From Armatimonadota bacterium (lineage in GTDB: Bacteria; Armatimonadota; HRBIN16), in contig PSLZ01000005.1 in assembly GCA_040289885.1 (NCBI GenBank), positions 26,598 to 90,597 of the forward strand: a DNA stretch of 64,000 bases, in the 5' to 3' direction. A program made the translations under genes and the position numbers. Numbering within the stretch: the stretch's first letter is position 1; every line of letters starts with the position of its first letter. The notes beneath the pieces were generated by a model that was not told where the DNA came from, searched no databases, and saw only the letters and a list, made by a program, of their open reading frames with translations. Shown here in pieces: positions 12,030 through 60,315 of the stretch.

Positions 12030-12935
12030 ATGAGCACCAACAACCCGGTCAACCGAAGAGGAAGCTCGCAGGGCACTCCGACCCTAACGCCGAACCGCAA
12101 GCCGGCGTCATCGGAGGCGCCTTCCCTGCTCAACCGGCTGACGCGCGTTGCGTTGCTCACGCCAGAGGAAGAGCAGGAACTGGCGGAGCGTGCTCGCAAG
12201 GGCGATGAAGAGGCGCGCCAGAAGCTGGTTGAAGCCAACATGCGCCTGGTGATGAACATCGCCAAACATTACCGCAACGCGCTCGTCCCGTTCGAGGACC
12301 TTGTGCAGGAAGGTGCCATCGGGCTGATGAACGCGGTGGAGCGGTACGACCCCTCCAGGGGCTATCGCTTCAGCACCTACGCGACGCACTGGATACGGCA
12401 GGCGATCGGGCGGGCAATAGATAACAAGGCGAAGACGGTGCGTATCCCCGCACACGTTGCCGAACAACTGCGCCGGATGGAACGCGAGCGGGAACGCCTG
12501 CGCCGGGAGACCGGCGATGAGCCAAGCGTCGAACAGCTGGCGAAAGCGATGGGCGTGTCGCCTAAGAAGATATTGCAGCTCCAGCAGGCGGCACAGGAGC
12601 CGTTGTCGCTCGATATGCTAGTCGGCGAAGAGGAAGATACCTCGCTGGGGTCCCTGATCCATGACCAGAATGTGCGCGACCCCGAAGAGGTGATGCTGGA
12701 GCGCGAACGACGCAAAATGCTGGACGAGCTCCTGGAAACCGAGCTCACCGAACGTGAACGACAGGTCATCATCCGCCGGCTGGGCTACGGCGACCAGGAT
12801 GAACAGGTCTTACAGGAGATAGGAGAGGCGCTGAAGATCTCGCGCGAACGGGTGCGCCAGATCGAAGCGCAAGCCATGCGTAAACTCAAGGACGCGGCTA
12901 AACGTCGGGGTTTACGCGAATACCTTCTGCAGTAG
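12030..12935 (+). CDS. RNA polymerase sigma factor, sigma-70 (RpoD/SigA) family, group-2-like (regions 1.2-4.2, no region 1.1)
   Basis: 301 aa; region 2 FSTYATHWIRQAIGRAI; region 4.2 TLQEIGEALKISRERVRQIEAQAMRKL; RBS GAGGAA. Confidence 0.88.
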   Translation: MSTNNPVNRRGSSQGTPTLTPNRKPASSEAPSLLNRLTRVALLTPEEEQELAERARKGDEEARQKLVEANMRLVMNIAKHYRNALVPFEDLVQEGAIGLMNAVERYDPSRGYRFSTYATHWIRQAIGRAIDNKAKTVRIPAHVAEQLRRMERERERLRRETGDEPSVEQLAKAMGVSPKKILQLQQAAQEPLSLDMLVGEEEDTSLGSLIHDQNVRDPEEVMLERERRKMLDELLETELTERERQVIIRRLGYGDQDEQVLQEIGEALKISRERVRQIEAQAMRKLKDAAKRRGLREYLLQ

Positions 12936-12964
12936 CGGTACTTTTTACCGCCTGTCTCCCCTAG

Positions 12965-13000
12965 CGGCACGAGAGTTTCCTCTCGTGCCGTTCGCCTTCT
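12965..13000 (+). terminator. stem-loop terminator downstream of the sigma factor gene
   Basis: cggcacgagag-tttc-ctctcgtgccg followed by ttcgccttct. Confidence 0.55.
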
Positions 13001-13084
13001 ATCACACGTGCCATTAAGAGGTTTCGCTCCGCCTGCCACCGAAAATAACAGACAGAGTCCCCCGTAGAAGCGAGGAACAGAGCC

Positions 13085-15070
13085 ATGCAGAAATCCAGTT
13101 CCGAACCCAGATGGCAAACAGCAACCGCCAAAGCCTTTCATCTGCACGAATGGACGTTCAGCCTCCAGCCATCGGGCAACCCCTTCTCCCCCGCTGACAA
13201 CGACATCACCGCGGAGATTCGCCTGCCAACAGGGGAGACGATACGTCAGCCCGCCTTCTGGGATGGCGATAACACGTGGAAGGTACGGTTGGCTCTGCTT
13301 CGCTCCGGTCGTATCCATTGGAGACTGCTAAAGAACGGCTCCCCGCTGTCGGTGTCGGCGTGGGTGGAAGTGAAACCGATATCGTCACAAGCGACATTGG
13401 GCTTCGTTCGCCGGCACCCTCGCCTCAAGCAGTTTACCACCGACGCCGGCAAAACCTTCTATCCGATCGGGCAGAACGTCGGGTGGAGAACGCCGAGCAC
13501 CGACTACCCCCTCTTCTTCGAGCAGATGTCACAAGCGGGCATGAACTGGGCGCGGATATGGCTGTGCCATTGGGACGGTAAGAACCCGGACTGGGTCATG
13601 AGCAAGCGGATGGAACCCGGCTGGCTGGATATGGAGGTCATTCGTCGCCTCGAGAAGATCGTGCACCTCGCGGAAAGGTTCGGTATTTATATCCAGCTCA
13701 CCCTCCAGCATCACGGACAATACTCCACCCGCACCAACCCGAACTGGGCAGAGAACCCCTGGAACAAGCAGCACGGAGGCTTTCTCGACACCCCCGAACA
13801 GTTCTTCACCCATCCTCGCGCCCTGGAGCTCACGCGCCACAAGTACCGCTACCTCGTTGCGCGATGGGGATACTCCCCGCATCTCATGGCATGGGAACTC
13901 TTTAATGAGGTGGAGTGGACCGATGCTGCTGCCAACGGTAAATGGGATGTTATCGCCCAGTGGCACCGCGAGATGGCACGCTTCCTCCGCTCAATAGACG
14001 TGCATCAACATCTGATAACCACCAGCTCTGCCATGGATGTTCCCAGCCTGTGGGTGGAGATGGACTACTACCAGCCCCATTATTACGTGCCGGATATCGC
14101 GGGCACGCTGTTCGAAATGACACCTGCGCGGAGGAATAAACCCATCTTCATCGGCGAGTGGGGTGGTGCGAACCCGCGACAGTGGGGCGATGAAGCCTTC
14201 CTTCGACAGGGACTGTGGGTCGGCGTGATGCGCGGACTGGCGGGAGGGGCGCAGTGGTGGTCCTGGGAAACCACCGAAGCACGCAAGTGGTACGCCCAGT
14301 GGGCATCCCTATCGCAGTTCTTGAAGATGGCGGGCTTTGTTTCCGGGAATCTCTGGCAGCCCATCTCCGCACAGGTGATGTCGAAGGCACGTGCGCCGTT
14401 CCGCTTCTCGCCGGGGGGCGGATGGGAAAGCACACAGCGGTACCGCTTCATCGTGCCAACCGATGGCTCCGCTATCGAGGGATTATCGCTCCTCTCGCGG
14501 TTCATACAGGGCGAGTCGCACCGCGACATGTGTCGGGAGCCTGTGGTGTTCGAAGTGGAGTTCGCACAGGCTGGAAGATGCACGCTACATATCGGCACGG
14601 TTGCCCGTAGCGGCGCTGGCATTATTGTCAGGCTGGACAACGAGATAGTCGCCCAGGAACGGTTCTCCTCCGCACAACGGGATACCTTCGTGAACCGTGA
14701 GATCACCTTCCCTGTGCCAGCAGGCAAGCATACGATTTCCGTCTGCAACCCAGGACCCGACTGGTTTACACTGGACAGCGTGACGCTGACGCCCTACGCA
14801 CCGCCAAACAAGGTCGCCGTTTGTGGAGATGGACAAAACGCCATGTGGTATCTGTGGCGCGAGCAACCGGTGGACGCGTCGGTCACGTTGAAGATACCGA
14901 GTACTCCACCGGGAAGATATAAGGTTACGTGGTGGAACCCTTCCACTGGCAGAGCGATACACACCGAGACCGTAGCGGTGGCACAAGGAGGATTAGCGCT
15001 GAAGGTTCCCGTGCACGAGCGGGACATCGCCGGCTGTTTGAGCCCTGCGGGGCGCCGAGCCAGCCTGTAA
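13085..15070 (+). CDS. glycoside hydrolase family 5 protein (DUF5060-like N-terminus + GH5 catalytic domain)
   Basis: 661 aa; GH5 catalytic acid/base motif WELFNEVE; RBS GAGGAA; 3' end overlaps the rnpB 3' end by ~20 nt. Confidence 0.75.
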   Translation: MQKSSSEPRWQTATAKAFHLHEWTFSLQPSGNPFSPADNDITAEIRLPTGETIRQPAFWDGDNTWKVRLALLRSGRIHWRLLKNGSPLSVSAWVEVKPISSQATLGFVRRHPRLKQFTTDAGKTFYPIGQNVGWRTPSTDYPLFFEQMSQAGMNWARIWLCHWDGKNPDWVMSKRMEPGWLDMEVIRRLEKIVHLAERFGIYIQLTLQHHGQYSTRTNPNWAENPWNKQHGGFLDTPEQFFTHPRALELTRHKYRYLVARWGYSPHLMAWELFNEVEWTDAAANGKWDVIAQWHREMARFLRSIDVHQHLITTSSAMDVPSLWVEMDYYQPHYYVPDIAGTLFEMTPARRNKPIFIGEWGGANPRQWGDEAFLRQGLWVGVMRGLAGGAQWWSWETTEARKWYAQWASLSQFLKMAGFVSGNLWQPISAQVMSKARAPFRFSPGGGWESTQRYRFIVPTDGSAIEGLSLLSRFIQGESHRDMCREPVVFEVEFAQAGRCTLHIGTVARSGAGIIVRLDNEIVAQERFSSAQRDTFVNREITFPVPAGKHTISVCNPGPDWFTLDSVTLTPYAPPNKVAVCGDGQNAMWYLWREQPVDASVTLKIPSTPPGRYKVTWWNPSTGRAIHTETVAVAQGGLALKVPVHERDIAGCLSPAGRRASL

Positions 15071-15430
15071 GCGGGGTTCTGTGCCCTGCCTGTAAAGGGC
15101 AGGCGGCGGCTATCTCTCTGGGGTGCCGGTTACCCGGCACCTCTAGCGGCTGTACCCGGAGGCTCAGCGGGCCACCTCACGGCCTCCCTATTCAGCCTTG
15201 CTCCCGATGGGGTTTGCCCTGCCAGCGGCATCACTGCCGCTGCGGTGCGCTCTTACCGCGCCTTTTCACCCTTGCCCGCATTCAGCAAACGCTGAACCGC
15301 TGGCGGTGTGTTTTCTGTGGCACTTTCCGTAGGGTCGCCCCTCCCGGACGCTATCCGGCATCGTGCCCTGCGGAGCCCCGACTTTCCTCCCCACCCAAAC
15401 GGGCGAGGCAGCCGCCCGGCTGGCTCGGTG
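15050..15430 (-). ncRNA. rnpB: RNase P RNA, bacterial type A
   Basis: Minus strand reads GAGCCAGCC...GGGAGGAAAGUCGGGGCUCCGCAGGGCACGAUGCCGGAUAGCGUCCGGG...AGAAAACACACCGCC...GGCAAGGGUGAAAAGGCGCGGUAAGAGCGCACCGCAGCGG...GGGCACAGAACCCCGCUUACAGGCUGGCUC, matching universal P4/P10-12/P15/P18 core blocks of E. coli M1 RNA; P1 helix GAGCCAGCC/GGCUGGCUC; -10 TATAAT at 15440-15445 (minus). Confidence 0.9.
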
Positions 15431-15450
15431 CCCAACTTCATTATACCGCA

Positions 15451-16632
15451 CTAAGGATGCGGTGACCATGTGGGCGCGTAGTTATCGCCAGTGCCGTCCG
15501 TTAACCGCCGCGCATCCGAGCCGTCAGCACTCACGAACCACAGGTCGCGCTTGCCGTCCTCGCGGAACTTGACGTAGACCAGGCTCGTGCCTCCCTGAGA
15601 CCACGTGGGTGTGATGGCATTGCCCTTTACGATCAACCGAGGCTCCGGGTCCCCAATCCCCATCACGCCGAGGCCTGCTCGGTCTCTCTCTTCCCCTTTC
15701 ACGCGCCACATCTCGAAGGCGAGATGGGTTCCCTCCGGCGCCCACACCACCGCTCCAGGCGCAAGGTCTCCCTTACTGCTCCATAGCGGTTGCAGAGTTT
15801 CCGTGACCAGGTTATACAACGCGATCGCGTGCCCGATCTGCTTGTTATCGATGATGGTGATGGCTAACTGCGTGCCATCGGGTGAGAGCGCCGTATGTAC
15901 CTCCTGCCCACCGATGAGGGGTTTGGGAAGCTTCTGTGTGTCGGGAAGCGGGACAGGCTGTGCCCCGGACGACGCCTCTTCCTCGTGCTGGTGGTCACGC
16001 CCTGCGCCCTCTCGCCGATAGCGCACTAGCGCATCGCCCCCTTCGGTACGCAGGATGGCGTACACGATTCGCTTCTCGGGGTCGTAGGTTGGCTCGCGAA
16101 ACAGCACACTGCCTCCGAACGTGTTGCGCCACTGCTGTTCCAGTTCGAAGGGAGGCAGAATCTTCTCCGCCTCGCCACCCTCGATATCTACCAGCAGAAC
16201 CTGTCCCTGCAAGAGGAACACGATGTGCTTGCCATCGGGTAGGAACTGGGGCTTCTCCTTCGCCCCAACGCTGACCGTCAGCTGTTGAACCCGCCTGCAT
16301 TCAGGGTCGGCGTAAAATACTTGGGGCACCCGATTATCCCTGTCGGAGATAAACGTGATCAGGCGTCCATCGGGCGACCACGCGGGGTCGGTTTCTGCAG
16401 ATGGGTCCGTGGTGATCTGGCGAAGCCCGCTCCCGTCCGGGCGAATCACCCACAAATCGGGGTTGCCAGCACGGTCGGAAACAAACAGTATCCAGTCCTT
16501 GGTATCGATGTCAGCAGGTTTGACACGGAAGGGATTGAAGTACCGAATCCAGAACATGCCCGCCGCTACCAGCACCACCACTGCCAGCAAGCCCAGCAGA
16601 GTGTGCCTGAACCAGACACGCCGTAGATACAT
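15451..16632 (-). CDS. TolB-like PD40/WD40 beta-propeller repeat protein, N-terminal membrane anchor
   Basis: Repeated PD40 units (DPAWSPDGRLITFISDR; LSPDGTQLAITI; APTWSPHP); N-terminal TM helix; RBS GAAGGGAG before ATG 16632. Confidence 0.75.
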   Translation of the reverse strand: MYLRRVWFRHTLLGLLAVVVLVAAGMFWIRYFNPFRVKPADIDTKDWILFVSDRAGNPDLWVIRPDGSGLRQITTDPSAETDPAWSPDGRLITFISDRDNRVPQVFYADPECRRVQQLTVSVGAKEKPQFLPDGKHIVFLLQGQVLLVDIEGGEAEKILPPFELEQQWRNTFGGSVLFREPTYDPEKRIVYAILRTEGGDALVRYRREGAGRDHQHEEEASSGAQPVPLPDTQKLPKPLIGGQEVHTALSPDGTQLAITIIDNKQIGHAIALYNLVTETLQPLWSSKGDLAPGAVVWAPEGTHLAFEMWRVKGEERDRAGLGVMGIGDPEPRLIVKGNAITPTWSQGGTSLVYVKFREDGKRDLWFVSADGSDARRLTDGTGDNYAPTWSPHP

Positions 16633-16709
16633 CACGCGCTCCCTTCAAATGATTTACTCTCGCCTTTGGCTTTTCGCTCTCAGAAGCGCAGATTCCTGTT
16701 GGCATTGGC

Positions 16710-17330
16710 TCAGTGCAATTGCACGCTCAGGGGACGAGCCAGCGCATCGAAAACGTTGTCGGGATTGTACGGTACCTGCACCAGCAAATGCCGCTCGCCC
16801 GGATTAGCGATGAAGAACGCCATGCCTCGCGCGAAACTCAAGCCATCTGGCGCACGCTCTGATATCAGGCGCAGTTTGAAGAAGCGCGGTAACTGACCGG
16901 GCCGGATGCTACCCCGCACGTCTTCAATCAACCGCCCATCCAGTGCCCCGCGTTGACAGTGATAGGCGTAAATGTTCTGATAGCTGATCCAGTCAAAACG
17001 CTCGTACACGACGAACAGCGAGAGCTCCGTAACTTCCCGAATGAAATCCGTGTGGGGCAGTTCGTACAGCCTCTCCAGCAGAGCCAGAGTCTCCTGCACT
17101 CCCACAAAGTGGTGGGCGAACGCTCCCAGCACCCCGGAAAACTCTTCAGGCAGTTCGCGGAACTCGTAGTAACAACCATTGGTGGACAACACCACGCGGG
17201 CGATCTCGTTGCTGAACTCTAGTCCCTCGCCAACCTGTTGTTTGACGTATCTTGCTAGAACCTGTGTCGCCTCTCCGTCAGCCTCTAATTGCTCGATGAA
17301 CCACTCGCTATCCATGGTTACCCCATCCAC
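16710..17330 (-). CDS. hypothetical protein (no recognisable family)
   Basis: 206-aa ORF with protein-like composition, same strand and downstream of glcE/glcF-like genes; GTG start after GGAAGGAAGGG. Confidence 0.5.
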   Translation of the reverse strand: MDGVTMDSEWFIEQLEADGEATQVLARYVKQQVGEGLEFSNEIARVVLSTNGCYYEFRELPEEFSGVLGAFAHHFVGVQETLALLERLYELPHTDFIREVTELSLFVVYERFDWISYQNIYAYHCQRGALDGRLIEDVRGSIRPGQLPRFFKLRLISERAPDGLSFARGMAFFIANPGERHLLVQVPYNPDNVFDALARPLSVQLH

Positions 17331-17499
17331 GATGCTTCCCTTCCTTCCCCAAAGAGATTGAACCTGTACAAATAGTATTCTAAGTCAGAAACGCCTTTGA
17401 AGTCAACCACTCCGCGACGGTTTTGCGCAAAAAAACCGCATTTTGACGGGGATAGATTGGCGCATGCCTCATCCCGTGTGCTCCGCGAGAATAACAGGC

Positions 17500-18783
17500 T
17501 TACTCACCATCCTGCTGATACGCCCGATACAGCAATTCCACAGGATGCATGATGGCTATCGGGTGAGGAAGAGAACGCAAGCCCTGCGCGATCCAAGCGA
17601 GACAGCCGGGGTTGCCGGTCAAAAGTATTTCCGCACCCGTTGCCCGAACGCGCTCCACCTTGCGCTGTAGCAGACGCAGTGCTATGTCCGGCTGTAACAG
17701 GTTGTAGATGCCCGCACTCCCACAGCACATGTCCGATTCGTCCAGATCGACCAGCCTTACGCCCGGGATACTGCGGATGACCTCGCGAGGTTGCCGACGC
17801 ACCCCTTGACCGTGCGCCAGATGACAGGCATCGTGATAGGTTACTACCAGCTCCGGCGTCCCCTCTTGCCCGCCCAACGGTTGCTTCGGCACCTCGAAGC
17901 CTGCCTCTACCAGAAACTCCATAACGTCTCTTACTTTCGCCGCGAAGGCTCGCGCCTGCACTTCGTAGGGTGTGCCTGCGAACAGCCTGCCATAGCCTTT
18001 CATGGCGGAGCCACATCCCGCCGAGTTGACGATGACCGCATCTACCGAGACGCGCCCGAAACACTCCATAAGGCGCAACGCCCGCCATCGCCCCGCCTCC
18101 GGAAAGCCATTATGCAGATGCAACGCCCCACAACACCCTTGTTCACGCGGCACTACCACCTCGTAGCCGTTGCGCTGTAGCACGGCAACGGTCGCCACGT
18201 TTACCTCGTGAAACAACACCGACGCCACACAACCCGTGAGCACGCCCACTCTGCCCCGCCGTTCCCCCATCGGCGGATACACCCCAACAAGCCTGCGCGG
18301 ATTCGCACCACGGGGCACCTGCGGCAGATTAGCCACCACCTTCTCCACACCCAGCAGCCGCGCCAACGGCGCAGGTAGCGCCTTGTCGCCGAAGAACGGA
18401 GACAACCTCCGACCGATATGAATGGCGAACGCGAAAGCGCGAGGCTGTGTCATCACATCCAGAAGCCACTTCTTCACGGTGCGCTGAACACCCGAACGCG
18501 ACGGCGACCGCTCCACCTGCGCCCGCGCAATCTCAATCAGCAAGCCATATGCCACCCCCGACGGACACGCGGTCTCACAAGCTAGGCACCCAAGACACCG
18601 GTCTACATGTTCGACCGCACCTGCCTGCCACTGGATGCGCCCTTCGGCCACCGCCCGCATCAGGTAGATACGCCCGCGCGGCGAATCGGCTTCACTGCCA
18701 TCCTCGACGTAAGTGGGACAAGACTGCAGGCACAAACCGCAATGGATGCATTTCAGCAGGTCCTCACTGCGAAACTCGCGCAT
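17500..18783 (-). CDS. glcF: (Fe-S)-binding protein, glycolate oxidase iron-sulfur subunit GlcF-like
   Basis: Two 4Fe-4S ferredoxin motifs (CIHCGLCLQSCPTY; CLGCLACETACPSG) followed by two CCG cysteine-rich domains; ATG overlaps stop of upstream gene (ATGA). Confidence 0.85.
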   Translation of the reverse strand: MREFRSEDLLKCIHCGLCLQSCPTYVEDGSEADSPRGRIYLMRAVAEGRIQWQAGAVEHVDRCLGCLACETACPSGVAYGLLIEIARAQVERSPSRSGVQRTVKKWLLDVMTQPRAFAFAIHIGRRLSPFFGDKALPAPLARLLGVEKVVANLPQVPRGANPRRLVGVYPPMGERRGRVGVLTGCVASVLFHEVNVATVAVLQRNGYEVVVPREQGCCGALHLHNGFPEAGRWRALRLMECFGRVSVDAVIVNSAGCGSAMKGYGRLFAGTPYEVQARAFAAKVRDVMEFLVEAGFEVPKQPLGGQEGTPELVVTYHDACHLAHGQGVRRQPREVIRSIPGVRLVDLDESDMCCGSAGIYNLLQPDIALRLLQRKVERVRATGAEILLTGNPGCLAWIAQGLRSLPHPIAIMHPVELLYRAYQQDGE

Positions 18784-30057: not shown

Positions 30058-30091
30058 TGCGCGCACCGCAGGGGTTTGGTTGTCACTTACG
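30058..30091. terminator. strong GC palindrome terminator (13-bp stem)
   Basis: cccctgcggtgcg|cgcaccgcagggg followed by TTTGGTTG; between convergent genes. Confidence 0.7.
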
Positions 30092-30836
30092 AGCGCTTGC
30101 GGCGAAGCAGGAACACCGCCGGCATGCCCGACAGGAACAGCATCCACGTCGAGGCGTCGGGGACGTTGGCGACGTAGACCACCATGTCCTGATAGTCGCG
30201 GTCAGCCCACGGCTGTCCGGTCGTCGGATGCCGGAACGGCGTGTCCTCTGCCCCAATGTAGTAGGCTTTCAACCCTGGCACAAGTGGCGGTGCTTCGAAG
30301 AACGCGAAGTGCTGGTCACTTGTTTGTCCAGGAGCATTCAGGTGGGACTCCGTGTACCAGGTGCCGCGGGGGTTCTCCAAATAGAACCCGAAGTCGGTGC
30401 TGCCAAGCGTCACAAGTGGGTTGAATATGATACTAGCACCGGGACCAGCACTGCCGTCGAACAGCTGTAGCCTGGTACTAGGATCACCCTTCTTGTAGAC
30501 ACCGAATTTGTTCGAACTGGCAAGTCCTGCAAGCTCGATCTTGATCGCCGCCCAGTCCGAACCCGGCGAGGTGAAGTACACTTCAGGGTCTGCACTTCCA
30601 CCTTCGCCTACCCAGGTTCGGCCAGGGAAGTATGGAGGCGCTCCCTGTGGTCCGATCTCCTTGCCAATGTTACCGTGTCCGGGATCCGAGCTCGGGTTGT
30701 CCCAGTACTCCCCCGAGTTGTCGGCTACCCAGTCTTGCCAGCTATAGGCCGCTTGCCCCTGCAGGGTCAACGCCCAGGCGCCCTGCACCGCCAGCGCCAA
30801 ATCGACCACCAATGCGAGTAGCACGAACCGTTTCAT
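30087..30836 (-). CDS. secreted PEP-CTERM sorting-domain protein
   Basis: Signal peptide MKRFVLLALVVDLALAVQGAWA; C-terminus VPDASTWMLFLSGMPAVFLLRRKRS (PEP-like motif + TM + basic tail); RBS GAAGGAGGAG. Confidence 0.75.
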   Translation of the reverse strand: MKRFVLLALVVDLALAVQGAWALTLQGQAAYSWQDWVADNSGEYWDNPSSDPGHGNIGKEIGPQGAPPYFPGRTWVGEGGSADPEVYFTSPGSDWAAIKIELAGLASSNKFGVYKKGDPSTRLQLFDGSAGPGASIIFNPLVTLGSTDFGFYLENPRGTWYTESHLNAPGQTSDQHFAFFEAPPLVPGLKAYYIGAEDTPFRHPTTGQPWADRDYQDMVVYVANVPDASTWMLFLSGMPAVFLLRRKRS

Positions 30837-30895
30837 CTTTCTCTTGCTCCTCCTTCACTTGATATTTTGGTTAGGGCTGCGAGTCCCTTCTCCAA

Positions 30896-30966
30896 CCTAT
30901 ATATATGCAAGAATCGTACCAAAACGGGGGTTTTGGGGCTTTTCGGGCAAAAATTTTTTTGAATTC
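30896..30966 (-). promoter_or_regulatory. sigma-54 promoter module (minus strand): AAAAATTTTT tract ... AAAACCCCCGTTTTGGTACGATTCTTGCATATATATAGG (-24 TGGTAC, -12 TTGCA)
   Basis: TGGYAC-N5-TTGCA core at 30906-30921 (reverse complement), ~58 nt upstream of the PEP-CTERM gene; same ~70-bp module recurs at 34921 and 59741. Confidence 0.6.
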
Positions 30967-31053
30967 TTTTCGCGTCCCATGCGATTCGAGGGCAACCCTA
31001 CCGATAATGAACAAAAATGTGTTATAATCATACTGTTACGAGGGCAAACATCC

Positions 31054-34747: not shown

Positions 34748-34920
34748 GGCTCACCGCCCTCCGGTTGAGTGTTTATCTCCTATTTATCATAGGGGAAAGC
34801 GATTCCTGCTGTCAAGCCGCCGTAGCTTTCCACCCTCAGATTGAATGAGACACCGACCAAGTTACTTCGCCAAACAATGTAGCCGTAGCGTCGAAACCCA
34901 TAATGCCCACAGGACGCCCA

Positions 34921-34995
34921 AAAAAATCTCACAATTTTTTGCGTCAAAAAGAGGAAAAACCCCGTTTTTGGTACGAATCTTGCAGTATATATACG
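34921..34995 (+). promoter_or_regulatory. sigma-54 promoter module (plus strand): CACAATTTTTT...AAAAACCCCGTTTTTGGTACGAATCTTGCAGTATATATAC
   Basis: -24 TGGTAC 34969-34974, -12 TTGCA 34980-34984; ~65 nt upstream of the PEP-CTERM/C-type lectin gene. Confidence 0.6.
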
Positions 34996-36646: not shown

Positions 36647-38635
36647 CTACGTCTCTAGCACCAGTGCCGCTACGGTACTCAGCAGTTCCGCATCGTGCCG
36701 GGTGAACTTGCGCGGCTGAAGGGTATATACCGCCAGCAGGCTGGTAGGCTTCTTGCCTCCGATGGGCACTGCCAGACAAGATGCCATCCCTTCACGCTGG
36801 ACAAATGGGTCGTCCCGAAACCGCACATCGGCGGAAGCCTGATAAACCAGAAGCGGGCGCCCCGTCTTTAACACCCACCCCATGCTCGCCATGCCTGTCG
36901 CCTCTTCGTCGTCCAGCAGGGTCGCCATTCGCGAGCCGCTCACCGCCATCGGCTTGATGCGGTTCCCTTCTACCATGTAGTAGATCGCGCGGTCCGCGCG
37001 CAACACCTCGGCGGCGATATTGGCAATCAATTGGGGAACTTCGCCCTGCTTGACCGTGCTCCCAATAGCCTTCGCCACCCGCAAGAAGTACTGGCGCAGG
37101 TCTTCCGACTTCTGCCGCTCTTCCTCATAGCGCATGGCGTTGTCAATGGCAACCGCAGCCTGATTGGCGATCGTGTACAGAAGCTCCATCTCCGCAATGG
37201 TAAACAGCCGCCGGCGACTGCTCATCGCTAGCATCACGCCCATCGGCTCCATGCCGACCTGCAGAGGCACACACGCCAGAGAAACAACCCCCTGCTGGTC
37301 CAGCGGAACCGCTGTGTTGCGAGGGTCGGCGGAGACATCCAACACATACACCGGGCTCTGGAACTCCAGCACCCAACCCGGAATCCCCTGCCCTTTGGTG
37401 GGGCGCAGACGGTCAAAATACACCGGGTCCACCCCGCGGCTCACATAGGTGCGCAGAACACCCTCGTTGCTGTCGTACAGCATCAACGCGAACTTGTCCA
37501 CCTGCAGGAGCCGAAGCACGCTGTCCGCCACCAAGTCCAGCACGCTGTGCAGTTCCAGCGACGAGTTGACCGACTGCGACAGCTCGTAAATCGAGGTTGC
37601 CTCCTCCGCACGCCGATGGGCATCCTCATACAGCAGGGCGTTCTCGATGGCGATACCAGCCTGCGACGCAACGCCGTTCAGCAGTTTCAGGTCGGCTTCG
37701 GTGTAGGCGTTGCGGCTGGTGCTGGTGACCAACAGCAGTCCCAGCGTCTTCGTGCGCGATCTAACGGGTGCATACAACGCAGAATGGATCCGCAGGCGCG
37801 GCACAAACTGCTCCACCCCAGGCTCTAGGTCCGCAGCGTTGACCAGTCGCGGCTCGCCACTGCGCAAGACCTCCGCCTGCAAGCCTTCATCCGCCGCCAG
37901 CATGATTTCGCGCTCCTCGCCTTCCAGCCCCCGCTCCGCCGCAATGAACAGGTGCGTGCGCTCGTCATTAAGCAGAAACAGCACGGCGAACGCATGAGGG
38001 AGATGCGCCGCAACCTCCTCTAGAACCGTGTCTAGCACCTGATTGAGGTTCAAACTACTGCCGATGCTCTGCGCGGCGTGGTACATCACCTCCAGCTCGC
38101 GCCGCAGACGGTCATTGCGCTGTTCTAGCTGCCGACGCCGCCACAGGCTGGCAACATGCGATGCCAGTATCTGAAGGCTCCGAATATCCGAAGAATCGAA
38201 CCGCGAGCCGTCACGCTTGTTGAGCACTGCCAGCGCACCAAGTATCTGCTGGTCACACTGTATCGGCACCACCGCCGCGCCGCGCAGGCGCGTTCCACCC
38301 AGCAGACTCTCCATCACAGGGTCGGCATGCATGGGGTAGAAGGGGATGGCGTTCTCACCGCGGCGCACCGTGCTCTCCATCAACGAGTTCTCCACACGAA
38401 ACACCGTACCGCGAAGGTCCTGTATTCCCTCTCCCGCAACCGCTACCAGGCGCAGCTTTGCCTCGCTCTCGGTGAGGAAAGCCACCGCGCTCGCACTGGC
38501 GTCGGTCAACACGCAGGCTTCCTCCGCGATGCGGCGTAACGCCTCCTCCAGCGGCAAGGGGTCTACGGCTATCTGCGCCGCCCGGTGAAATCCGGCAACC
38601 TGCTGTTCCCACGAGACGATGCTCTCTGTGTCCAT
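36647..38635 (-). CDS. multi-GAF domain sensor protein (about four tandem GAF domains, no recognisable output domain)
   Basis: ~660 aa of repeated GAF-like units; start ATG 38635 (MDTESIV) after GAAGGGG; ORF-track upstream 34 aa look spurious. Confidence 0.7.
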
Positions 38636-38838
38636 GCCCTGCCCCTTCGCTCTGGGCAAATGTTCTATTGCACCATTATTGTTACTACACCTGTCAACCT
38701 TTGTCAAGCAAAGATGCACATGTGAACACTTCGACACTCCCGCTTTTTCTCCTGCGCCCAGCAGGAATGAACGCTTCGTGTGGTAAAATATTAGTTACCC
38801 AAAGCGTAATCTCTCCGACGCAAAGGAGGTTCTCGAAC

Positions 38839-42560: not shown

Positions 42561-43244
42561 TCAAAACGCTTGCAGGGGATTGAACTGGCTAGCGCTCCAC
42601 GGGCTCTGTACCGCCAGTCTGATCCACCGCACGTGACCATCTGCAAACACCACGTTATTGCCGTCGTTGTGGCGCGGACACTGCCACCGCGGACGCTCCC
42701 GATACGCCGATTCCCAGTTCGGGTGCCGCTCGGCAAGCTGACCGGGAAGCACATACATCATGTAACTGCCCATGGCGCCGTTCAGGTTGTTTGCATCCGC
42801 CCGGTTGTTGGGCGTGTCATACGCCAGAAACGAGTTCGACGGCACTGTAATCCTGTCCAATGCCATTCCGCTGGTTCCATAAGCCGTGCCCATCAGGCGC
42901 GGAAACCCCAAAAACGTGTTGTATGCATAACTGGGCACCGGCAATGTGTTCTCCGGGCATACCCAGATTCGCGCATCCTTCACGTACGGCTGTAACGCTA
43001 CCATCCATGCGCGCCCCTCAGGAGCAACCACCGCGTAGGGAAACGCCGCGGGCAGGTTGCCTTCCCAGTCCTGGGCGTAGAGCGCAAATGCCTGCCCAAT
43101 CTGGCGCAGGTTGCTAACGCATGCGCTACTGCGTGCCACCGCGCGGGCGCGCCCAAATACCGGCATCAAAACGGACGACAGGATCGCCACCACGGCGATG
43201 ACGACGAGCAGTTCAACCATCGTAAAGGCTTTTCGCGTTCTCAT
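42561..43244 (-). CDS. prepilin-type N-terminal cleavage/methylation domain protein, DUF1559 family (second copy)
   Basis: MRTRKAFTMVELLVVIAVVAILSSVLMPVF...NVVFADGHVRWI; ATG 43244 with GAGGAG 8 nt upstream. Confidence 0.8.
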   Translation of the reverse strand: MRTRKAFTMVELLVVIAVVAILSSVLMPVFGRARAVARSSACVSNLRQIGQAFALYAQDWEGNLPAAFPYAVVAPEGRAWMVALQPYVKDARIWVCPENTLPVPSYAYNTFLGFPRLMGTAYGTSGMALDRITVPSNSFLAYDTPNNRADANNLNGAMGSYMMYVLPGQLAERHPNWESAYRERPRWQCPRHNDGNNVVFADGHVRWIRLAVQSPWSASQFNPLQAF

Positions 43245-43450
43245 GACACTCACTCCTCATGTTCAAAATAGTCTTCGCTGTGCAGGGCACCGCTCCTTGT
43301 GGTAGCCTCTTTTTTGCCCAGCACCCTTATTACTAGCAAGAAGCGTGCCACAGCGGTGATAAAATTACCAGATTTTGCCCCAAACGGCGGGAAATTTCCA
43401 CCCGTTTCCCGAAAACATTACCAGCAAAAACGAACGCGGAGAGTGCCAAC

Positions 43451-48974: not shown

Positions 48975-50057
48975 CTACCGTCTTCGTCGACGCAGCGCCA
49001 GCAATGCCACACCGCCTAGCAACACCAGCCCCGATGCAGGCTCCGGCACCGGCTGTGCCAGAATCACGCTCCAGTAGCGCACCCCGCCGATGTCTTCGCG
49101 GGTCACCCACACCAGCTCGCCCCGGTCGTTCAGCGCGACACGGAAACTGCGCGTGGTGCCGCTGTTGTCGGTCAGCGCAATCAACGTGCCATCGGCAAGC
49201 AGATGCACATCGTACTTCCGAAACAGAATCGCCTGCTCGTATGCTACCCAGCCTCGGTTGTTGATGTCGGGCGAGGAGCTGAGGGCGTTGCCGGTGTTGT
49301 TCGTCAGCGCAACCACCCCCGTCGCCTCCGACCACTGCTCGATGTTCCAGTTACTGCCGTTGTGGTGCATCCACACCACCTGCCCGTTGTCGTTGAGGTC
49401 GGGCGAGGCGTAGTCGTCGCCGACGGTGTTCTGGCTGAGGTTGCGGTAGTTGCGCATGTCATCCGCATGAGCGAGGTAGATCTGCGCATTCGCCCTGCTG
49501 TCCACCGCATTCCATGCTATCTCGCCTCGGTTATTGATGCGAGGGGTCTGGCTGTCGAAGCCCGCCCAGCTGGTCAGGTTCACCGGGTCGCTGTCGCCGG
49601 GCTTCCACAGGTAGATGTCCTGATAGCCTGTTGTCAGGTTCGTTCCCGTTGTCACCACCCAGCCCGAGTCGTTGATGTCCGGCGCACCAAAGCCTACCGA
49701 GCCGTCAGTATGCGTGATGTTGGTAATGATACCGCTATCCCACAATACCACATCCGATACGGAGCCGTCGTCGTAGCGCCAGACGATCTGATTGTGGTTG
49801 TTGATGCGGGGATAGGTGTTCAGGCGTCCCTGCTCGCCCGCACTGAGCCGTCGCACCTGCGAACCATCGTACAACCACACGTCCGAGCGCATAAAATCGC
49901 CCTCGCCCCACACGATCCAGCCGTTGTTGTTGATGTGCACCGACTGAACCGAGTTGGTATGGCGGTAGATGACCCGCGTGCGGAACACCGACTGGGAATG
50001 TGCCCGCAGGCTCGCCAGCAGTAACCCCGCGATCGCAATACCGTACAGGACACGCAT
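48975..50057 (-). CDS. secreted repeat (beta-propeller-like, ~7 x P-INN-G-IVW units) protein with PEP-CTERM anchor
   Basis: RBS AGGAGG 7 nt before ATG 50057; signal peptide MRVLYGIAIAGLLLASLRAHSQS; C-terminus PVPEPASGLVLLGGVALLALRRRRR; repeats INNNGWIVW / INNHNQIVW / INNRGEIAW / LNDNGQVVW. Confidence 0.8.
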   Translation of the reverse strand: MRVLYGIAIAGLLLASLRAHSQSVFRTRVIYRHTNSVQSVHINNNGWIVWGEGDFMRSDVWLYDGSQVRRLSAGEQGRLNTYPRINNHNQIVWRYDDGSVSDVVLWDSGIITNITHTDGSVGFGAPDINDSGWVVTTGTNLTTGYQDIYLWKPGDSDPVNLTSWAGFDSQTPRINNRGEIAWNAVDSRANAQIYLAHADDMRNYRNLSQNTVGDDYASPDLNDNGQVVWMHHNGSNWNIEQWSEATGVVALTNNTGNALSSSPDINNRGWVAYEQAILFRKYDVHLLADGTLIALTDNSGTTRSFRVALNDRGELVWVTREDIGGVRYWSVILAQPVPEPASGLVLLGGVALLALRRRRR

Positions 50058-59740: not shown

Positions 59741-59812
59741 CAAATTTGCACCAATTTTTCCTCTCGGAGGCGCAAAATCCCCGTTTTTGGCACGATTCTT
59801 GTGTATAGGAGA
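59741..59812 (+). promoter_or_regulatory. sigma-54 promoter module (plus strand): ...CACCAATTTTTCC...AAAATCCCCGTTTTTGGCACGATTCTTGTGTATAGG
   Basis: -24 TGGCAC 59788-59793, -12 TTGTG 59799-59803; ~60 nt upstream of a secreted-protein gene; third copy of the module. Confidence 0.55.
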
Positions 59813-59862: not shown

Positions 59863-60315
59863 ATGAACAAACATCTCGCTTTGTGGAGCCTGGCTGTGGC
59901 TGTTCTGCTCATGGCAGTGCCCGCGCTCGCACAGACATGGGTGCCTGTGGGAACAGCCGAAGGCGGTATCGCGGTGTATTTTAACGACACCAACGAGGTA
60001 CCCACGAACGTTTCGTACATCCGGGTGCAGTACGCCAACTCCACCACCAACGTGAACGGGGCTTCTATCAGCATGTTGGAACCGTTTAAGACCATCTTTG
60101 GTGACTTGGGGCAGTACGGGTTTGACGGTATCGCCCTTGCGCCCACGAACACGAACCCGCACGCTCTTCAGCGTGGGGCTGTTGCCGATTGGAACGTGGC
60201 TTCGTCGTCGGAAGGCGTAATAAAGAAAAGACGCGATAGCGGTATGGCTCACAGCCCGGCACATAGCCTGCCGGGCTGTGTGGTATACAGCCTCTGGCAG
60301 GATATGTTATCATAA
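59863..60315 (+). CDS. secreted hypothetical protein (sigma-54 module upstream; no PEP-CTERM tail as read)
   Basis: RBS GGAGG 8 nt before ATG 59863; signal peptide [25 protein letters not shown]; a perfect hairpin cagcccggca-N7-tgccgggctg lies inside the last 60 nt of the ORF. Confidence 0.6.

Follow-up and report, generated by a model that had tools for sequence, protein, structure and literature searches.

A conserved promoter module of probable sigma-54 type precedes PEP-CTERM, exosortase and EPS genes in thermophilic Armatimonadota

Sigma-54 promoters of PEP-CTERM genes and related systems

A sigma-54 motif located at a mean distance of 71 nt before the start codons of PEP-CTERM genes was described by Haft et al. 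(2006), together with a 17-nt motif 1 that ends in TTTACA, lies approximately 63 nt (32-92 nt) upstream of the sigma-54 motif and was proposed to be the site of PrsR; these motifs were common to Proteobacteria only and the system was named PrsK/PrsR/PrsT (PMC1569441). For one PEP-CTERM gene, pepA of Aquincola tertiaricarbonis, a TGGCAC..CTGCTT promoter has been mapped and requires rpoN1 (PMC9850573).

The 64,000-nucleotide stretch of DNA analysed here (the window) and loci related to it carry a promoter module that resembles the region described by Haft et al. in several respects. In both cases a -24/-12 site precedes single-gene PEP-CTERM units in large intergenic regions, genes never contain the site and exosortase/EPS loci are also linked to it, and the distance from the site to the start codon is 61-71 nt for three copies of the window (c1-c3) against the mean of 71 nt there. 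The two differ in lineage (Armatimonadota here, Proteobacteria there) and in composition. TTTACA occurred in 0/34 non-redundant sites at -115..-26 and no shared enhancer was seen, whereas phased A/T tracts, an A/T-rich block at -11..-1 and a G-rich start characterize the sites described here, where the exosortase operon itself also carries the site. The TTTACA box was thus rejected as a component of the module. A preliminary description of the window had associated the module with PrsK/PrsR, a link that found no support: besides the missing box, neither PrsK (TIGR02916), PrsR (TIGR02915) nor PrsT was seen in the window or related loci, and the Haft system has been described for Proteobacteria only. 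The pepA promoter of A. tertiaricarbonis likewise combines a sigma-54-type promoter with a PEP-CTERM gene and offers experimental proof of principle; it belongs to a betaproteobacterium that possesses PrsK/PrsR and a predicted enhancer, whereas the present case is one of sequence analysis.

At the sigma-54 promoters Pu and nifH, IHF bends the DNA between enhancer and promoter, and static curvature has been reported as a substitute for IHF. The module has in common with such promoters a bend (predicted here) immediately upstream of the -24 element. It differs from them in that the predicted bend is intrinsic and regulon-wide, with no IHF consensus and no recognisable enhancer beyond it. A further point of comparison is provided by bEBPs without a DNA-binding domain, such as FlgR of Helicobacter and CtcC of Chlamydia. 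A bEBP without HTH was also found here (locus L082) and would fit enhancer-free promoters, although it belongs to an organism outside the clade.

Copies of the module in the window

A pattern comprising the 23-nt core with flank (CCCCGTTTTTGGYACGAWTCTTG), searched with up to three mismatches, matched the window only at 30908-30930 (-), 34960-34982 (+) and 59779-59801 (+), with 0 matches in 100 shuffles and a chance expectation of 0. These are copies c1, c2 and c3, all three of which had been located correctly by the preliminary description. The generic sigma-54 pattern TGGYACGNNNNTTGY gave five matches in the window against 0.21 expected, namely c1, c2, c3, an intragenic match (49177-49191) that lies within an ORF and lacks any accompanying module feature, and an intergenic match at 43336-43350 (-). 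The latter, c4, is a more diverged fourth copy before a pseudopilin gene, which had previously been missed. With a 46-nt weight matrix trained solely on sites outside the window (from other genomes), c2, c1, c3 and c4 scored 62, 51, 32 and 18 bits, respectively; the only other positive score (4.6) was the c1 site in a register shifted by 1 nt, and the next separate position of the window scored -1.2. All four copies are situated in divergent intergenic regions, each oriented toward its downstream gene. The features of the copies are as follows (coordinates, strand, feature, basis).

30922..30970, minus strand: c1 phased A/T tracts (AAAAG AATTC A7T5 .. GAAAAG .. CAAAAC .. GTTTT) upstream of the -24 element; tract alignment and phasing
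30907..30921, minus strand: c1 sigma-54-type core TGGTACGATTCTTGC, with GG at -25/-24 and GC at -13/-12; patterns, 51 bits
30898..30906, minus strand: c1 A/T-rich block ATATATATA at -11 to -3; A/T fraction over 34 sites
near 30895-30897, minus strand: c1 predicted start GGTTGGAG; from sigma-54 geometry
34920..34968, plus strand: c2 phased A/T tracts; tract alignment and phasing
34969..34983, plus strand: c2 core TGGTACGAATCTTGC; patterns, 62 bits
34984..34995, plus strand: c2 AGTATATATA block, with the G at about 34995 as predicted start
59741..59787, plus strand: c3 phased A/T tracts; tract alignment and phasing
59788..59802, plus strand: c3 core TGGCACGATTCTTGT, with GT for GC at -12, the weakest of the three copies first reported; patterns, 32 bits
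43351..43400, minus strand: c4 upstream A/T tracts, looser than those of c1-c3; tract alignment
43336..43350, minus strand: c4 core TGGCACGCTTCTTGC, then TAGTAATAAGGGTG, with a predicted start at about 43324; generic pattern, 18 bits

The GG and GC dinucleotides of TGGCACG-N4-TTGCW are exactly 10 nt apart, and c1, c2 and c4 match in full. The earlier characterization of the element as a near-consensus -24/-12 site was accurate as regards this exact GG-N10-GC geometry in TGGYACG-N4-TTGC, but not for copy 3, which has GT and not GC at -12. The alignment given for copy 1 also required a one-base shift in a C/T run (CCCCCGTTTT against CCCCGTTTTT), the site itself being present.

Genes downstream of the module

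The genes downstream of the four copies are the following.

30087..30836, minus strand: c1 gene, a secreted protein of the DUF4114 family with VPDAS-TM-RRKRS as its C-terminal anchor; homologs carry PF13448
35049..35615, plus strand: c2 gene, signal peptide, C-type lectin and PEP-CTERM; Pfam PF00059 and PF07589, NCBIfam TIGR02595 with 21.8 bits (cut-off 16)
59863..60315, plus strand: c3 gene, a protein of 150 aa whose N-terminus resembles a signal peptide and which lacks both PEP-CTERM and any recognised domain; Pfam and NCBIfam scans
42561..43244, minus strand: c4 gene, pseudopilin-like, with prepilin-type N-terminal methylation and H-X9-DG (DUF1559); domain models

The c2 product was confirmed as a C-type-lectin PEP-CTERM protein, with PF00059 and PF07589 called by Pfam and TIGR02595 above its cut-off. 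The product of the c1 gene had also been called a PEP-CTERM protein; neither Pfam nor NCBIfam makes this call, and what can be retained is a PEP-CTERM-like variant, the VPDAS-TM-RRKRS tail, on a DUF4114 protein. An exact-sequence look-up of this protein gave no record. The c3 region is identical on metagenome contig Ga0209989_100606 (L033).

Among related genomes, the same promoter was found before at least four further PEP-CTERM families, with the PEP-CTERM domain (TIGR02595/PF07589) recognised in three, other secreted proteins and an ECF-like sigma factor gene, the sites being located 40-160 nt, and rarely about 260 nt, before the next gene. It is also carried by the exosortase operon in two lineages (L073/L077 and L079), approximately 115 nt upstream of EpsH, which is the first gene in the order EpsH-EpsI-chain-length-regulator-priming-transferase-Wzy-glycosyltransferase-flippase. 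The exosortase of these related genomes was recognised by TIGR02602 with 177 bits (cut-off 105.55), and none was identified in the window among approximately 40 ORFs scanned with Pfam. The module thus marks secreted, mostly PEP-CTERM proteins in many related genomes, as expected from its initial description as the signature of a dedicated regulon, and the statement that the window contains neither activator nor exosortase also held, neither having been found within it.

Two further arrangements were noted among these loci. For L060 (minus strand, start approximately 3367), L050 (approximately 640) and L063 (plus strand, approximately 2068), the promoter is followed after 107-152 nt by a terminator, consisting of a strong hairpin (GGTCCCAGG..CCTGGGACC) and a T-run, with no ORF in between; this unit is possibly a candidate small RNA under the same promoter. 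For L007, L042 and L067, the PEP-CTERM gene starts approximately 260 nt after the site and the long leader holds a TTGACA-type sigma-70-like promoter, which suggests dual promoters.

Distribution of the module

With a G+C content of 60%, the window carries housekeeping genes as well as genes for a tRNA and for RNase P RNA. The c1 protein was found to have homologs solely in MAGs that bear the labels Armatimonadota, Chthonomonadetes or HR16 and in two MAGs from the Katase hot spring, KatS3mg022 and KatS3mg023, both of which were assigned to class c__HRBIN16 by their source paper. Gene order near c1 and c2 is kept in these related genomes. Both this synteny and the names of the homologs assign the window to class HRBIN16 of the Armatimonadota and not to Proteobacteria.

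A scan with a 21-nt pattern identified 26 loci in a species-genome collection and 41 in a metagenome collection. Approximately 30 of these are of the Armatimonadota type, all with the entire module architecture, and the remainder consist of one multi-copy element in a MAG labelled Verrucomicrobiota and a handful of unrelated matches. Among these unrelated matches, the pattern adjoins bEBP genes in a Eubacteriales locus and a Desulfobacteraceae locus, each matched in both collections. As these are known sigma-54 users, the pattern is, by its sequence, a genuine sigma-54 site.

Conservation of the core and the identity of its reader

Orthologous loci were retrieved via the c1 protein and not via the motif, because pattern scans force the core to match. 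In the loci fetched in this manner, TGG-Y-ACG, TTGC and their spacing were invariant before DUF4114 and lectin orthologs and paralogs. The N4 spacer took six forms across orthologs (AATC, ATTC, CTTC, GTTC, GTTT and AACC), and the G after TGGCAC is A in some of them. The upstream CCCCGTTTT flank was variable, with CCCGCCTG, CCCCTTCTA, CCCCTTGAA or GCCGCGCGAA in orthologs. The suggestion that conserved flanks extend beyond the core could consequently not be upheld in general form, the CCCCGTTTT flank and the GAWTC spacer both varying among orthologs. A GANTC methylation site in the spacer was also considered and, since ortholog spacers read GCTTC, GGTTC, GGTTT and GAACC, rejected. The c2 core is kept before orthologous lectin genes in L019, L020, L069-L071, L075 and L076, and the CTGTGGCACGCTTCTTGC version of c4 also occurs before DUF4114 paralogs in L069, L070 and L075. 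Even between MAGs that share no more than 38-70% protein identity, the sites occupy orthologous positions. In loci with independent gene calls, 18 full-featured sites were intergenic and co-directional with the next gene, with one exception that is located in a 78-aa ORF call without Pfam match, which we take to be spurious. Fixed positions of sigma-54 contact and a free spacer are the pattern expected if sigma-54 is the reader of the element.

Searches for the sigma factor itself, using motifs and tblastn, found neither rpoN nor a bEBP in the window or in approximately 370 kb (partly redundant) of related Armatimonadota DNA; as this amounts to a small part of a genome of approximately 3.25 Mb, the result is uninformative rather than negative. 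Using E. coli RpoN as query, only E. coli proteins were returned. No link between Armatimonadota and sigma-54 was found in the literature searched, and the genome paper of Fimbriimonas ginsengisoli names only rpoD, rpoE and fliA as sigma factors (PMC4072686). The missing rpoN and bEBP in the DNA read and the absence of rpoN from the genes named for Fimbriimonas would agree with a different explanation, in which these genomes lack rpoN, the block serves as operator for a DNA-binding protein specific to the lineage or for some unknown sigma-like factor, and the likeness to a -24/-12 element is convergent or coincidental; TATATA, GGGTGGA and CCCC are, moreover, conserved beyond the needs of sigma-54. 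This explanation is considered quite unlikely, as the positions fixed among orthologs are exactly the sigma-54 consensus and its spacing while those that vary belong to the non-contacted spacer, the gene set is one known to be sigma-54-dependent elsewhere, and the DNA sampled is only a small part of any genome. Also very improbable is a clade without rpoN in which an undescribed factor reads the -24/-12-like element and the bent DNA, as a second, independent solution with sigma-54-like geometry. In thermophilic Armatimonadota (HRBIN16 and relatives), the module most probably marks a regulon of PEP-CTERM cargo, exosortase and EPS that depends on sigma-54 and has a distinctive promoter architecture, a reading with which the gene content agrees through the known sigma-54/PEP-CTERM link.

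Architecture around the core

Alignment of 34 non-redundant sites on TGG revealed five A/T tracts with peaks at -43, -32, -21, -11 and -3 relative to the T of TGG. The spectral power of these tracts is maximal at 10-10.5 bp (z approximately 23 against shuffles). A/T tracts in helical phase are a classical signature of intrinsically curved DNA, and the tracts are predicted to bend the upstream DNA here. The A/T tract had been viewed as a possible IHF bend, and this was not borne out: the IHF consensus WATCAR-N4-TTR is absent from both strands in 34/34 sites, and five tracts phased at 10-10.5 bp are found in its place.

Downstream of the -12 element, the A/T fraction of the 34 sites is 0.78 at -11..-1 against 0.48 at +1..+11, in a genome of 60% G+C. 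The block following TTGC is usually TATATA, at an offset of 0-3 nt, and was initially thought to mark the expected start; its actual position is -10 to -2, just upstream of it. A G-rich GGGTGGA follows the A/T-rich block at the predicted transcript start.

The retention of TATATA 0-3 nt after TTGC could be taken for the -10 of an ordinary sigma-70-family promoter, with the TGG/TTGC block as an overlapping activator or repressor site, and the TG before TATATA does resemble an extended -10. This seems highly improbable: a TA repeat cannot supply both A2 and T6 of the -10 hexamer, there is no -35 at 16-18 nt, and the offset between TATA and TTGC varies by 0-3 nt whereas the spacing of TGG and TTGC never varies. 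A scan of the right strand upstream of c1 and c2 showed no sigma-70-like site, although a weak one (TTGGCA-18-GATGAT) overlaps the c3 core. Housekeeping promoters in the same window are canonical, that of the RNase P RNA having TATAAT and that of the tRNA TTGACG-N17-TATGCT.

Several copies per genome with approximately 45-70 nt in common might also stem from a short mobile or repeated sequence of the MITE/REP type that has no bearing on expression. This is extremely unlikely given that the copies are intergenic and always aimed at the next gene at 40-160 nt (rarely approximately 260 nt), hold their orthologous positions among MAGs with proteins only 38-70% identical, lack terminal repeats and lose similarity at the module edge. 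A cis-regulatory leader RNA common to these mRNAs is given virtually no weight. A small hairpin close to the 5' end of each leader and the retention of GGGTGGA at the predicted transcript start would speak for it; against it, most of the conserved block precedes any plausible start, the leaders differ from one gene family to another, their folding does not surpass that of shuffles (z -1.2 to +0.3), and no Rfam family matches.

Further elements were observed near some of the sites. In L029, a degenerate second promoter copy (cGGTACCAATCTTGCATATATACGGGTGTGGAGG) is arranged in tandem approximately 75 nt downstream of the first site. In the window (31000-31045) and its orthologs (L069-L071), boxes of the form ATTATA/ATTACA and ATTATC/ATTACAGGCA are located approximately 95 nt upstream of c1-type sites. 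Beside a glycosyltransferase gene their opposite strand reads TATAAT/GATAAT, so that a divergent promoter of that gene is the simplest reading, and they were rejected as a regulatory element of the c1 orthologs. Similar ATTACA boxes also occur before a DUF4114 paralog without a divergent neighbour, where this reading does not account for them.

Proposed mechanism and the activator

According to the sigma-54 reading, each copy would be an enhancer-dependent sigma-54 (RpoN) promoter, at which the holoenzyme would form a closed complex on TGGYACG-N4-TTGC. An AAA+ activator would then be needed to melt the A/T-rich block at -11..-1, and transcription would start at the G-run (GGGTGGA) approximately 12 nt after the -12 C. 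The upstream 45-50 bp would act as statically curved DNA, formed by the five phased A/T tracts, and not as a protein-specific box; we infer that the bend takes over the role that IHF plays at sigma-54 promoters of the classical type, or that it contributes to holding the polymerase. In thermophilic Armatimonadota (class HRBIN16 together with MAGs labelled Chthonomonadetes), the regulon is predicted to serve the cell exterior; its putative members are single-gene signal-peptide units (most of them PEP-CTERM), the genes for a pseudopilin and for an ECF-like sigma factor, and the exosortase-EpsI-EPS operon. With this operon in the regulon, sorting enzyme, polysaccharide and cargo would switch on together.

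No convincing shared enhancer was obtained from 6-mer enrichment at -190..-72, where the best 6-mer occurred in 11/34 sites and the region is partly neighbouring coding DNA. Since no shared enhancer was seen, one speculative possibility is an activator devoid of a DNA-binding domain, as is the bEBP adjacent to the nearest outgroup exosortases. These exosortases, the nearest outside the clade at 38% identity, belong to L081 and L082, in which a cassette of histidine kinase, bEBP, PilZ and rpoN directly adjoins exosortase-EpsI (14343-18429 and 12192-16946, respectively). In these loci, several sigma-54 sites of the TGGCACGnTTCTTGY flavour are present, with sites located before the exosortase, PMT_2, Poly_export and PilZ-rpoN genes. 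The genes of L081 are fragmented by apparent frameshifts. The named relatives of the L082 RpoN in a search against representatives were Chloroflexota, the rest being unnamed proteins. The L082 bEBP possesses receiver, AAA+ and lid regions and no HTH even at E up to 0.1; against TIGR02915 (PrsR) it scored 386, with a cut-off of 503, and the DNA-binding domain is absent. Its kinase is a soluble PAS kinase. An activator similar to this bEBP would explain enhancer-free promoters, its transfer to the lineage of the window being speculation. An entire sigma-54 regulon without enhancers, operating by static DNA curvature and an activator without a DNA-binding domain, is a tentative and rather doubtful proposal, ranked nonetheless as more likely than a clade without rpoN that uses a different factor.

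The sigma-54 reading would extend the sigma-54/PEP-CTERM link beyond Proteobacteria to a new phylum. The general principle is already known and the advance lies in scope and architecture. Hot springs are rich in Armatimonadota, on which there has been almost no genetic work, and one easily recognised signature that unites PEP-CTERM cargo, a pseudopilin and the exosortase/EPS operon would permit the surface/biofilm regulon to be listed in any MAG of the clade. It would also provide a naturally occurring example on which to examine sigma-54 activation where curvature is built into the DNA, possibly without enhancers.

Other putative regulators and a repeated element

Two further genes of the window are of the regulatory type or may be so. 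In a 696-aa protein (36647-38737, minus strand), four GAF domains are all that can be recognised; this protein is kept beside a TetR gene and the lectin PEP-CTERM gene in L075 and may be a regulator. A 301-aa sigma-70-family factor (12030-12935, plus strand) possesses regions 1.2, 2, 3 and 4 (group 2/3-like) and is unrelated to the -24/-12 sites.

The multi-copy element from the pattern scan is approximately 300 nt in length and is present in eight copies in MAG JAKQDD01, labelled Verrucomicrobiota (L002-L006, L012, L013 and L015), with elements of the same type in metagenome loci L027, L030, L034, L038-L040, L043, L055, L059 and L066. It contains a conserved 70-nt block that ends in GGTTATCC and is followed by CCGGTTTTGGCACGATTCTTGA (GG-N10-GA). 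Three to four tandem 10-nt units (GCACTGGGGC or AAAGCTCTGA) come next, and after them a further conserved stretch of approximately 120 nt with no convincing ORF. The element could be a repeated promoter-plus-RNA unit.
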